Shown piece by piece: positions 28,109 to 53,932 of a stretch of 64,000 bases of DNA (positions are counted from its first letter, which is position 1; each line of letters opens with the position of its first letter). The position numbers and the translations under genes were made by a program. Source of the DNA: a virus (taxonomy: Duplodnaviria > Caudoviricetes); the IMG/VR virus record IMGVR_UViG_3300047160_022640, positions 1-64,000 of that record. One strand, given 5' to 3'. The notes under the pieces are model-generated. The model searched no databases. It saw only the letters and a program-made list of their open reading frames with translations, and was not told the DNA's origin.

Positions 28109-31100
28109 GTGGCCCACATCGCCGGTAGTAGAGGACGCGTTGTCCACGGTGAAACGTATCCTGATCACAAGCCGCCGCCCGGGGACACTGGTGCCTCTGG
28201 CTCTACAGGCCCTACTGGCGCGACGGGCCCGCTAGGTACCGGTCCGACCGGAGCTGCTGGCGTCGCCTCGAACACCGGTGCGACAGGCTACACCGGGAAC
28301 ACAGGGCCGACGGGAAGCACGGGCCCCGCTGGCACCGCTTCAAATACCGGCGCTACCGGGTACACCGGAGCGACGGGTCCGCTCGGAACAGGCCCGACAG
28401 GTATCACCGGATCGACGGGGCCCACCGGGCGCACAGGCTCTACGGGGCCTACCGGCAATACCGGTCCCGCGGGCAGCGCAACGAATACCGGTGCGACCGG
28501 TTTTACCGGCAACACAGGACCCACTGGTAATACCGGTCCCGCGGGTACTGCCAGCAACACGGGTGCGACTGGCTACACAGGACCCACCGGCAACACTGGA
28601 CCAGCGGGCACCGCCAGCAACACGGGTGCGACTGGATATACAGGGCCTACTGGATTTACAGGACCGGCAGGCACAGCGAGCAACACGGGTGCGACTGGTT
28701 ACACCGGAAACACCGGTGCCACCGGCCCTGCTGGCACTGCAAGCAATACAGGTGCGACAGGATTCACGGGTGCGACCGGATCAACCGGATCAACCGGTGC
28801 GACGGGCCCTGCTGGGAGCGCGACCAACACGGGCGCCACCGGCGTCACGGGTGCGACAGGTGCAACCGGAACGACGGGGCCTACCGGCACACCGGGCAGC
28901 GCAACAAACACCGGTGCGACCGGAAATACTGGCAACACAGGACCAACAGGTACGACAGGCCCTGCTGGCACAGCCGTCAACACGGGTGCGACTGGGCCGA
29001 CAGGTCGCACGGGACCGACGGGATCCACCGGTTTCACCGGTCCGGCCGGTACTGCAGCCAACACCGGTGCGACGGGTGTTACTGGTGCGACTGGATCAAC
29101 CGGTCCGGCAGGCAGCGCAACGAACACTGGAGCTACCGGTTACACAGGGCCTACTGGATCGACGGGATTCACAGGCCCTGCGGGAAGCGCAACCAACACC
29201 GGTGCGACTGGTTACACGGGTCCGACAGGTTTTACTGGCCCCGCTGGAACCGCCTCTAATACAGGTGCAACGGGATACACCGGGCCCACAGGCGCAACGG
29301 GTTCGACAGGCACACCTGGCTCCGCATCAAATACCGGAGCGACAGGCCCGACTGGACCGCTCGGTATCGGTATCACCGGTAGCACCGGTCCTACCGGTGT
29401 AACCGGCACAACTGGATTTACTGGGTTCACCGGATACACAGGACAGACCGGTAGTACTGGTCCAGCAGGTACAGCCTCAAACACCGGAGCAACAGGTTCT
29501 ACTGGATTTACCGGCAACACAGGACCTACAGGTTTCACAGGTCCTGCAGGCACAGCGAGCAACACAGGCGCTACTGGGTTCACTGGAAACACAGGACCTA
29601 CAGGTTTCACAGGACCAGCCGGCACTTCATCAAACACAGGCGCTACCGGTTTCACCGGAAACACAGGTGCCACCGGCGCGACCGGTGCTACTGGAGCAAC
29701 TGGCGCTACCGGCGCTACGGGCGCGACCGGAACTCCTGGAACGGCAGCCAATACGGGCGCGACTGGCAACACAGGACCCACAGGAAGCACAGGCAACACA
29801 GGTCCGGCGGGCACGGCATCGAATACCGGTGCGACAGGGCAAACCGGATTCACCGGACCCACCGGATCGACAGGCAATACCGGTCCTGCAGGAACGGCAT
29901 CGAATACAGGTGCCACCGGACCGACGGGGCGCACGGGACCGACGGGCGCGACCGGATCGACGGGCGTCACCGGCGCGACGGGTGCCCCTGGAACGGCCGC
30001 TAACACCGGCGCGACGGGGCCTACTGGCAATACCGGTCCCGCAGGCACTGCGGCGAATACAGGCGCGACCGGCAACACCGGGTTCACAGGCCCGACCGGA
30101 AGCACAGGACCGGCAGGTACAGCCGCGAACACCGGAGCGACGGGTGCAACCGGCGTTACCGGTGCGACGGGATCGACCGGGCCGGCGGGCAGCGCAACGA
30201 ACACCGGCGCGACGGGCTACACAGGCTACACAGGTCCGACGGGTCCGACTGGAGTAACGGGAGCGACAGGGCCTACAGGGGCGACGGGGCCCGGCAATTC
30301 ACCCTCCCGTCTGAACAAGAACATGCCGGCGGCAAACACCTCCGGCGACGGGCAACCCGCCACGGCGACAGCCATGGCAGCAACACCATCGCCCTCGGCG
30401 GGAGGCGACGGTGGATACATTTCGGTCGCCGTCAACGGTGTTCTGTACGTAGTAGGCGACGGCACCAAAGTAGGAGTAGCTTGCTACTTCTCCGGCGATG
30501 GCGGTGCTACAGCGCGAGCGCTTCAAAATGTTGTCGCAGGCGACATCTTGTACTGGAACGGAAGCGTCGCCGGCTTCGACCTAGTCGGAACGACCGATCG
30601 GATCGACTTCCTGTACGACGTGGTGAGCGTCACTACCGGATCAACAGGACCGACCGGAAGAACCGGCCCTACTGGCGCGACGGGATCGACAGGTCCCGGC
30701 GGCACGGCAACGAATACAGGTGCGACAGGCGTCACCGGTCCGACCGGAACCACTGGGCCCGCCGGTGCTGCGAGCAATACTGGAGCGACCGGTCCGACCG
30801 GACGCACCGGCGCGACAGGTCCAACTGGATTCACGGGACCTACGGGTGTCACCGGAGGTACGGGACCTGTCGGAGGCAGTACTCCAGCGCGTGCGAACAA
30901 GAACATGGCCGCCAACAGTACGACTGTTGACGGCCAGACAGCCACAGCGACGGCGATTTCGTTCACGCCAGCGATCTCTACTGGCGGAAACGGCGGATAC
31001 ATCGGCGTCTCCGTGAACGGCGTCGCGTACGTTGTTGGCGATGGCACGAAGGTCGGTGTCGCCTGCTACTTCTCAGGCGATGGCGGCACTACAGCGCGCG

Positions 31101-52474: not shown

Positions 52475-53932
52475 ATGGCGGAACTCGTACAGCAAAAACA
52501 GCTATCTCTGACCGGGATCATCACCGGATCTACCGGCACAAGCGGTACGGGCGGCACCGGTCCTACCGGATCTACCGGATCGACAGGACCAACTGGGCCC
52601 GCCGGATCGGCGACAAACACTGGAGCGACAGGATTCACCGGATCGACAGGCGCGACTGGGCCATCGAACACGCCGCCGTTGTCTTCGGTTCTAGCCGTCG
52701 GAAACACGACCGGCGCGCATGACATCATCGTCAATAACGGCCAAGCCATAGTCGGTGACACGGGCGGCAGCGTGCTCACGCTGAGAGGCGGCGCGGCCGG
52801 AGGCGCCACTATCGGCGGCGGTATCAGCGTCACCGCAACCGCGGGCGGAGCGACAGGTGGCAACGGCGGCCCGATCACCGTTCAAAGCGGAGCTGGCTTA
52901 GAAGGAGACGGCGGATCGATCACGGTCACTGCCGGCAACGCCGGCACCGCGTCAGCCGCTAATAGAGTAGGCGGCGTGGTCTCGATAACTGCAGGTACGG
53001 GCATCGGGACAGGCAACGGAGGAACGGCATCGCTCAAAGCCGGAGACACTATTTCTGGCACAGGCGGCGCCTGCTCGATACTGGGCGGCAACGGCGGGAC
53101 TGGCTCTGGTTCTGGCGGCGGCGATGTGAACATCACTGGAGGGAACGGCGGTCAGAGCGGCATCGGCGGAAACGTCGTCATCGCGTCTGGAGACGGAGGA
53201 TCTGTAACCAGCCAACCGGGAAACGTGACGATCAAGGGCGGTGTCGCTCGAGGGGCTGTTTCGAATGGCGGCGGCATCGTCATACAAGCCTCCAACGCGC
53301 ACGGCACAGGCAACGGCGGCCAGGTGGTCATCACTGGAGGTGACAGCTCCAACAACGGTGTCACGGGCGGCGCTATCACGATCACCGCGGGCAATGCAAC
53401 CGGGTCGGGGAGTACCGGTGGCGGTGTCACGATCACCGCGGGCGCAGGCAACCAAACCGGCACTGCCGGCAACGTTCTCATCACGGCCGGTGCGGGCGGT
53501 TCGACGACAGGCAACGGCGGCTCGGCCACGCTACGCGGCGGTCTGCCGGTTGCGGGCAACGGCGGCTCGGCGACCATTCAGGGGCAAGCCGGAGCAGGCG
53601 GTGCCGGGAACGGCGGCGATGCCGTCTCTCTCCCAGGCGCCGGCGCCGGCACCGGGACGCCCGGAAGCGCGCAGCTGCAAAGCGACAACGGATTTCCGCT
53701 CGTCGAAGCCGTTGCTATCGTCTCCGGATCACAACGTATCGTATCGATTGCCGGATCAGCGAAAGTCACAACGACGCAGATGCCGACCAATACCGGCGAT
53801 CGAGTCATCTACATCGCCAACGCTGCGACGGTGCCTACCGCCAACCCGGCATCTGGGGCTATTCTGTACGCCGCTAACGGAGCGCTTTACATGCGCAGCG
53901 TAGGCGGTACCATCTCGAGAGCGGCGGCGTAA
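52475..53932 (+). CDS. short collagen plus glycine-rich repeat fibre protein
   Basis: MAELVQQKQLSLTG N-motif; about 14 GG.(V/I).I.(A/G)G repeats. Confidence 0.85.
   Translation: MAELVQQKQLSLTGIITGSTGTSGTGGTGPTGSTGSTGPTGPAGSATNTGATGFTGSTGATGPSNTPPLSSVLAVGNTTGAHDIIVNNGQAIVGDTGGSVLTLRGGAAGGATIGGGISVTATAGGATGGNGGPITVQSGAGLEGDGGSITVTAGNAGTASAANRVGGVVSITAGTGIGTGNGGTASLKAGDTISGTGGACSILGGNGGTGSGSGGGDVNITGGNGGQSGIGGNVVIASGDGGSVTSQPGNVTIKGGVARGAVSNGGGIVIQASNAHGTGNGGQVVITGGDSSNNGVTGGAITITAGNATGSGSTGGGVTITAGAGNQTGTAGNVLITAGAGGSTTGNGGSATLRGGLPVAGNGGSATIQGQAGAGGAGNGGDAVSLPGAGAGTGTPGSAQLQSDNGFPLVEAVAIVSGSQRIVSIAGSAKVTTTQMPTNTGDRVIYIANAATVPTANPASGAILYAANGALYMRSVGGTISRAAA

Follow-up and report, generated by a model that had tools for sequence, protein, structure and literature searches.

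The window analysed here (the whole stretch of DNA under study) is the first 64 kb of the 87,768-bp IMG/VR record IMGVR_UViG_3300047160_022640, which was rated complete by CheckV. Its positions 28109 to 53932 hold six genes for Thr-rich, collagen-like fibres that enclose a block of four enzyme genes, among them a gene for a 919-amino-acid (aa) protein joining a family 2 glycosyltransferase (GT2) domain to tetratricopeptide repeats (TPR) (Table 1). The original prediction, made from the sequence alone, had described this region as a self-contained system, akin to those of giant viruses, in which a dedicated operon glycosylates and methylates a long fibre coat. All six collagen genes were found at the predicted starts on the + strand, and the enzyme block between them, predicted at 7.5 kb, runs from 37559 to 45111 (7553 bp; four genes in the same direction as the fibre genes). 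The giant-virus framing was contradicted by the gene content: because the genome encodes a LysM/peptidoglycan-binding protein, an SLT lysozyme and an integrase, together with a Dam methylase, Sak4, ParB and helicases, it is that of a temperate bacterial virus of 88 kb and not of a giant virus. The region is best explained as the fibre (host-recognition) module of this virus.

Table 1. Genes of the fibre module and flanking landmarks in the window (E values for fibres refer to Pfam Collagen)
Feature	Position	Strand	Length (aa)	Details
Fibre 1	28109-33736	+	1875	Putative class A N-terminal docking peptide; E 1e-89
Fibre 2	33747-36248	+	833	Class B N-terminus; collagen tract ~45 aa; 770-aa head
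Fibre 3	36780-37514	+	244	Class A; 84 collagen residues; 133-aa C-terminal domain; E 4e-10
Fibre 4	45175-47250	+	691	Class A; ~520 collagen residues; 104-aa C-terminal domain; E 8e-65
Fibre 5	49320-50960	+	546	Diverged class A; 144 collagen residues; 369-aa head; E 7e-19
Fibre 6	52475-53932	+	485	Class B N-terminus; ~54 collagen residues; 420-aa head
Methyltransferase-HtrL protein	37559-39151	+	530	S-adenosylmethionine (SAM)-methyltransferase-like, ~aa 40-190; HtrL_YibB, aa 206-~470
Class B radical SAM protein	39105-41780	+		B12-binding PF02310 and Radical_SAM PF04055, above cut-offs; Intein_splicing and LAGLIDADG_3
Small GT-A protein, GT31/Fringe-like	41777-42439	+	220	
Four-domain GT2-TPR enzyme	42352-45111	+	919	
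Small gene conserved across the family	36215-36505	+		Hydrophobic, probably a membrane protein
Small gene conserved across the family	36518-36739	+		
Collagen-free putative fibre/accessory protein	47250-48281	+		Weak GH16/lectin-like C-terminus, E 1e-4, at cut-off
Collagen-free putative fibre/accessory protein	48282-48974	+		
Collagen-free putative fibre/accessory protein	48985-49308	+		PHROG 1276, E 1e-5
Protein between fibre genes	51204-52460	+	418	
LysM/peptidoglycan-binding protein	26265-27446			
SLT lysozyme	54720-55454			
Integrase	58999-60177			

Collagen-like stalks, docking peptides and heads

Fibres 1, 3, 4 and 5 passed the PF01391 gathering threshold, which fibres 2 and 6, with ~45-54 residues of G-X-Y each, did not reach (fibre 2: 21.4 bits, cut-off of 27.2; fibre 6: no Pfam match for either the collagen tract or the head). 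Fibre 5 scored far under the cut-offs of the NCBIfam collagen-like adhesin models Lcl/Scl, and the head of fibre 2 gave a weak pentapeptide-repeat hint only. Thr filled 396 of the 534 Y positions in the G-X-Y tracts (74%) and Ala 93 of them, so the tracts are indeed Thr-rich, but the earlier description of Thr in "nearly every" Y position was overstated; Lys was not among the eight commonest residues at Y. Some 750 residues of fibre 1 are collagen-like (25-729, 844-924 and 1037-1102 on the segment map). The long tracts of fibre 1 (~705 residues) and fibre 4 (564 residues, 24-587) agreed with the predicted 700 and 560, and at ~0.29 nm per residue, the figure used in that prediction, they would indeed extend for ~200 and ~160 nm if the triple helices are continuous. 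The collagen-like stalks span ~45 to ~750 residues and should trimerise.

The tract of fibre 1 contains 27 interruptions, and most of them follow the motif G-[TS]-A-[STA]-N-T-G-A-T-G: another residue takes the Gly position of one triplet, and the register is unchanged. This motif punctuates the tracts of fibres 1 and 4 every 18-36 residues. Copies were also found in related viruses (20 and 39 in genome G003, 10 in G025, none in G020), and the motif was almost missing from the collagens of the bacterial cassettes described below.

All six fibres, and nothing else in the genome, begin with one of two short N-terminal motifs: class A in fibres 1, 3, 4 and 5, and class B (MAELV..QLSLTG) in fibres 2 and 6. 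Among relatives, class A shows sharp conservation as MSHI[IV]GRGRYARETYP; most collagen proteins recovered there begin with it, and so does a beta-helix protein of ~405 aa that contains no collagen and shares homology with the duplicated fibre 1 head. The class A peptide is likely to be a common docking peptide. At its other end, fibre 1 finishes in two tandem beta-helix head domains (1104-1487 and 1494-1875), of which the second was the one head modelled (AlphaFold2; predicted local distance difference test [pLDDT] 81.7). The model was a right-handed parallel beta-helix which VIA-align matched to the tail fibre of phage 7-7-1 (Z 17.6) and to PL6 alginate and pectate lyases and CBA120 tailspikes (Z 15-16), while Foldseek against the PDB returned no significant match. 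On the basis of the docking peptides and the beta-helix head, the fibres appear to be modular proteins of receptor-binding or depolymerase type, with a docking peptide, then a collagen stalk of variable length, then a variable head. A passive "coat", as first proposed, does not fit proteins that have docking peptides and, in the one modelled fibre, a tailspike-like head.

A predicted protein glycosyltransferase beside the fibre genes

The 919-aa enzyme was modelled with a pLDDT of 91.7 (AlphaFold2) and consists of an HtrL-like alpha/beta domain (29-250), a GT2 domain (255-410), a TPR region (420-605) and a GH130-like beta-propeller (615-919). It matched PF00535 above cut-off (E 1e-8) and PHROG 13126 (E 8e-30), and it carries a DxD motif at 344-346, of which D344 and D346, along with 39 other columns, were invariant in 56 homologues. 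When the PDB was searched by sequence, the glycocin S-glycosyltransferases SunS and ThuS and the Listeria protein GmaR were the only matches (E ~1e-5), and a Foldseek search with the model likewise placed SunS/ThuS first (E 4e-15). Helical repeats occupy residues 421-604 of the model and were matched by designed TPR proteins and by the TPR region of SunS, although Pfam TPR_17 stayed under its cut-off. The propeller was matched by Foldseek to GH130 mannoside phosphorylases and a mannoside synthase (E 2e-10 to 1e-9; 5b0p, 9erg, 4udk and 7fir; target template modelling [TM] score 0.5-0.66); it had no Pfam match, PF04041 occurs in 32% of one neighbouring Atlas cluster, and one homologue of the enzyme was named GH43/DUF377 by the Joint Genome Institute (JGI). 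The GT2, TPR and propeller parts of the predicted architecture were therefore upheld. Its HtrL label for the N-terminal domain drew weaker support, from an hhalign comparison with HtrL (E 0.066) in which the motifs were collinear and from a homologue of the same architecture (P0093) that carries PF09612; the domain itself had no Pfam match.

Of the starts in this frame, only the ATG at 42352, preceded by AGGAG at a distance of 6 nt, retains the whole first domain, giving a 919-aa form that overlaps the upstream gene by 88 nt. The public protein set has an 849-aa version, probably truncated, in which the N-terminal domain is missing its first strand; the longer form is preferred because of the homologues and the ribosome-binding site. 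Against the NCBIfam SunS model (TIGR04195) the enzyme scored 35.1 bits, under the cut-off of 350, so it is not a SunS equivalog and shares the fold alone. GmaR is a flagellin O-GlcNAc (N-acetylglucosamine) transferase. Taking folds and motifs together, the GT2-TPR core is predicted to be a cytoplasmic protein glycosyltransferase of the type of SgtA, SunS and GmaR.

Collagen genes adjoin GT2-TPR genes in bacteria

A profile search gave 329 GT2-TPR relatives in reference genomes from many phyla, and the best 80 loci were searched for Thr-rich G-X-Y runs of at least eight triplets. Such a collagen tract was present in 36 of the 80 loci, 34 of which had it within 3 kb of the glycosyltransferase (GT) gene; tract density was 8.5 per 100 kb within 3 kb of the GT gene versus 0.36 per 100 kb at a distance of 3-8 kb. 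The tract lay directly upstream of the GT gene on the same strand in 21 loci, and none was found in a control set of 80 bacterial loci built around an unrelated gene (1.1 Mb). Reading frames examined in 16 loci revealed a collagen-like open reading frame (ORF) near the GT gene, and in about half of these it was followed by a GT2-TPR ORF of 358-384 aa, often less than 100 nt away. This two-gene cassette recurs in Chlamydiota, Actinomycetota, Proteobacteria, Bacteroidota, Myxococcota and other metagenome-assembled genomes (e.g., loci L079, L095, L099, L106 and L136). In a tree of the GT2-TPR region, the window enzyme fell within a 21-row clade (98% support in the Shimodaira-Hasegawa-like approximate likelihood ratio test [SH-aLRT]) whose bacterial sister group was collagen-adjacent in 9 of 13 cases, and collagen adjacency recurred in nearly every major clade.

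A literature search found one GT2-TPR enzyme paired with a collagen-like protein, namely SgtA of Clostridioides difficile with the exosporium glycoprotein BclA3. SgtA holds a GT2 domain and four TPRs in 358 aa, its gene adjoins bclA3, and in vitro it modifies Thr in collagen-repeat peptides of BclA3 with beta-O-GlcNAc (PMC7157674). Judged by described architecture, the window enzyme resembles it in having a GT2 domain followed by TPRs, a neighbouring gene for a Thr-rich collagen-like protein and the character of a cytoplasmic nucleotide-sugar enzyme, and the length of SgtA is also that of the adjacent GT ORFs in the bacterial cassettes.

Co-occurrence within the virus family

Records of 25 relatives were recovered via the capsid protein, with collagen in 14 and the GT2-TPR enzyme in 17. 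Co-occurrence with GXT genes across relatives had been proposed in the original prediction as a check on the cluster, and the enzyme was examined for it: among 19 complete genomes, window included, 11 had both, one had collagen only, one had the enzyme only and six had neither (Fisher P = 0.0017, uncorrected for relatedness). In genomes with both, the GT gene was always within 10 kb of a collagen gene; in the window fibre 4 begins 64 nt after the gene for the 919-aa enzyme, and like adjacency was seen in relatives.

Probable glycosylation of the fibres by the virus

Because the enzyme has the folds of peptide glycosyltransferases and the architecture of SgtA, and because the pairing with collagen recurs both as a bacterial cassette and across the virus family, fibre O-glycosylation is well supported, though unproven. 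We give a probability of about 65% to the reading that the virus uses its own GT2-TPR module for O-glycosylation of Thr in the G-X-T stalks of its fibres, and to that extent the proposal that viral enzymes glycosylate the Thr-rich fibres gains support. From the observed gene content, folds and conserved neighbourhood we infer as follows what the enzymes act on, in which order and to what benefit. The TPR arm would hold the G-X-T chain while it is unfolded or still folding, and the first sugar would be added to Thr hydroxyls by the GT2 domain in the cytoplasm. Extension of the glycan might then fall to the two domains fused to this core (HtrL-like and GH130-like), to the GT31-like enzyme and to HtrL in the 530-aa protein, whose methyltransferase domain would cap the chain. 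Activated sugars and SAM, as well as cobalamin for the radical SAM protein, would be supplied by the host. The payoff would probably be a stabler triple helix without hydroxyproline, and fibres that are protected or sticky. Glycosylation of Thr at the Y position can stabilise triple helices that lack hydroxyproline, as in worm cuticle collagen.

Several points weigh against this interpretation. The virus family offers only three phylogenetically independent contrasts, on which the co-occurrence test was not significant, so co-occurrence in the virus family is not significant on its own. Relative G001 has a collagen fibre without the GT2-TPR enzyme (its collagen gene is adjoined by a GT1 gene and a methyltransferase-like gene), and a distant viral record with a GT2-TPR relative showed no collagen in 181 kb (CheckV, 66% complete). 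Roughly one in two bacterial relatives has no collagen next to it, and glycocins and flagellin make clear that the GT2-TPR family also acts on other substrates. The roles given to the extra domains are guesses, and GH130-like domains could trim a glycan and not build it. Finally, relative G009 has the GT2-TPR-propeller enzyme together with fibres that bear the family N-terminal motif and no collagen tract; its enzyme gene (L055, 4976-9063) is flanked by genes for nucleotide sugars (Polysacc_synt_2, RmlD-like) and GT25, a fuller sugar pathway than that of the window.

The gene content of G009 would suit enzymes that glycosylate other virion proteins (the capsid, or non-collagen heads and linkers), collagen not being the main acceptor, as might be compared with chloroviruses and some mycobacteriophages; phage-encoded virion glycosylation has been proposed for cluster F mycobacteriophages (PMC11256854). 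We regard this as unlikely, however, given that relatives of the enzyme repeatedly adjoin Thr-rich collagen genes in bacteria, where no virion exists, and that collagen is present in 11 of the 12 complete family genomes having the enzyme.

Other enzymes of the block

Glycosylation of the collagen stalks by the GT2-TPR enzyme would have further enzymes at hand. The 530-aa protein matched PF09612 (HtrL_YibB) at 40.2 bits, above the cut-off of 24.1, and its N-terminus weakly matched Methyltransf_24 (E 0.013). The methyltransferase-HtrL architecture is shared by 914 homologues of equal length, some of which carry PF13578 and one of which was named O-methyltransferase YrrM by JGI; motif residues were invariant in the homologue alignment, and the protein was present in 4 of the 25 relatives. 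Since the methyltransferase is fused to HtrL, methylation of a glycan is plausible. The 220-aa protein, already called a GT-A enzyme in the original prediction, had no Pfam match (PF01762 and PF02434 included), and it does resemble enzymes of GT31/Fringe type: its Atlas model matched viral Galactosyl_T/Fringe clusters (feature score 0.98, TM 0.84), PF01762 being present in 15-35% of their members. In one relative (G020), a homologue is flanked by the same pair of genes.

HtrL_YibB proteins are otherwise known from core loci of lipopolysaccharide (LPS) or lipooligosaccharide (PMC4172580). Together with the temperate nature of the virus and its integrase, and with the general activity of GH130-like and GT31-like domains on glycans, this raises the alternative of a lysogenic-conversion or host-takeover cassette whose setting among fibre genes is due to chance and which acts on the host, remodelling its surface polysaccharide, its LPS or one of its collagen-like proteins, perhaps as a barrier to superinfection. 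Several features make such a role improbable: the genes are inside a co-directional structural block and away from the integrase, the block's place beside the fibre genes is conserved in relatives, and the closest solved folds to the core enzyme act on peptides, not lipids. No obvious membrane-spanning stretch was seen in the enzyme sequences when judged by eye (no transmembrane predictor was run), nor was a Wzx/Wzy-type partner.

Fibre glycosylation by the viral enzymes would depend on the host for sugar donors: no nucleotide-sugar synthesis gene was found among the larger ORFs scanned, and for this reason the system is not "self-contained". An independent promoter for the block is also unsupported because no sigma70-like site precedes 37559, where the gap is just 44 nt, and the probable genes called between ~15.7 and 57.2 kb are all on the + strand. 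The sole sigma70-like site on the + strand in 27-46 kb, at 39072-39099, is just upstream of the radical SAM start, as would suit a moron that brings its own promoter; the count of sigma70-like sites was, however, under chance expectation.

The B12 radical SAM gene was present in the block as predicted, with both PF02310 and PF04055 above cut-offs. It is also interrupted by an intein of ~400 aa with a LAGLIDADG endonuclease, a feature absent from the original description. The intein splits the radical SAM C-x3-C-x2-C motif (C-P-F-G-C-G-F-C) before its last Cys, which is the +1 residue, and the motif is complete only once the intein is removed. No NCBIfam subfamily (PhpK, HpnJ/R, BchE etc.) could be assigned (best score 85 bits, cut-off 600). 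The gene was found in none of the 25 relatives, and a single-sequence scan of viral contigs gave no relative; a profile scan returned 142 viral and 411 bacterial relatives, whose flanks contained Thr-rich collagen in 4/80 viral and 0/80 bacterial loci and GT2-like genes in 6/80 and 0/80, respectively. Its inclusion in the glycan pathway was rejected on the grounds of this absence from the family and the lack of linkage to collagen or glycosyltransferases elsewhere, and the intein-bearing gene is taken to be a recent accessory insertion, a separate cargo unique within the family to this genome. Homologues occur both with the intein (P0245, 877 aa, 54% identity over the full length) and without it (~490-507 aa), and members of the radical SAM family are numerous in viral contigs and in Patescibacteria, Nitrospirota and Elusimicrobiota.

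A radical SAM gene with a homing-endonuclease intein is clearly mobile cargo, and the same might be asked of the whole block, with enzymes that are selfish or decaying cargo or that modify DNA, and with collagen tracts serving as unmodified spacers. This appears very improbable: catalytic motifs of the GT2-TPR enzyme are invariant in the 56 homologues, the methyltransferase-HtrL architecture is retained in its 914 homologues, the reading frames are all intact, and no DNA-glycosyltransferase family was matched.

Comparison with known systems

If the GT2-TPR module does glycosylate the stalks, what is new here would be chemistry of the SgtA/BclA3 type in a bacterial virus, expanded to a multi-domain enzyme set for several fibres. 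Unlike SgtA, the enzyme is virus-encoded and has two more domains fused to it, one HtrL-like and the other a GH130-like propeller; three further enzymes are adjacent, and the set may serve six fibres where SgtA serves one spore-coat protein. For residues 250-600, nothing solved is closer in structure or sequence than SunS/ThuS and GmaR, which share the GT2-plus-TPR fold, yet SunS/ThuS modify Cys in small peptides and GmaR modifies Ser/Thr in flagellin, and no glycocin or flagellin gene is present here.

Among viruses, Mimivirus with its collagen-like proteins and L230, and Megavirinae with their fibril glycosylation clusters, likewise combine virus-encoded collagen-like proteins, glycosyltransferases and a methyltransferase for fibrils of the surface, and L230 hydroxylates Lys and glucosylates hydroxylysine (PMC9614988). 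In contrast, the Y residue here is Thr and the host is bacterial, and neither a hydroxylase nor an L230-like domain was found in any scanned protein. Giant viruses also make their own nucleotide sugars, whereas the present virus showed no genes for this in the scan described above. Spike P5 of the tectiviruses PRD1/PR772 is built on this plan too, with docking at the N-terminus, receptor binding by a head at the C-terminus and a trimeric, collagen-like stalk between them (PMC6750898), and the same docking-stalk-head plan is found in prophage tail fibres with collagen repeats, e.g., of Escherichia coli O157 (PMC3368898). The stalk of P5 has ~17 residues (PMC6750898), compared with up to ~750 here, and these two papers report no dedicated glycosylation genes for P5 or the prophage fibres (PMC6750898, PMC3368898).

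Were the reading correct, a bacterial virus would be building long hydroxyproline-free collagen that is stabilised or masked by its own sugar machinery, and collagen served by such an enzyme of its own has so far been documented only for BclA3/SgtA and, via different chemistry, for Mimivirus. We would suggest more tentatively, as a possibility short of an even chance, that GT2-TPR enzymes and Thr-rich collagens form an ancient and widespread two-gene system for glycosylated fibres which was captured by large soil bacterial viruses, possibly tailless, and expanded to a multi-enzyme machine for six or more fibre types, some ~200 nm long. In that event, the module would be for bacterial viruses a counterpart to the glycosylated fibrils that giant viruses make. 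The pairing of GT2-TPR enzymes with Thr-rich collagen across phyla is a testable rule that could predict which collagen-like proteins of bacteria and viruses are glycoproteins, and it offers compact pairs of enzyme and substrate for stable recombinant collagen. The arrangement also points to how these uncultured viruses may show several receptor-binding heads via one conserved docking peptide.

Genome setting and genes between the fibres

The GC (guanine-cytosine) content is ~0.60. The DNA of the enzyme block had no match in 50,697 phage records, and relatives of the capsid gene in genomes were limited to two short contigs of one Binatia metagenome-assembled genome, which is uninformative for the host. 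No terminase, portal or tail family was detected with PHROGs in ~30 large proteins, which fits a tailless virus and is no proof of one.

Further genes are interspersed with the fibre genes. The 418-aa protein between fibres 5 and 6 had no Pfam, PHROG or NCBIfam match. Three collagen-free putative fibre or accessory proteins follow fibre 4, the first with its start placed at 47250 because the ATGA there overlaps the fibre 4 stop. The first and third of these have a similar N-terminal domain of ~100 aa (PHROG 1276), and both may be further fibre heads or adaptors. The two small genes between fibres 2 and 3 have homologues in relatives that are 39-66% identical (BLASTP) and occupy the same position, between a head-domain gene and the collagen genes.

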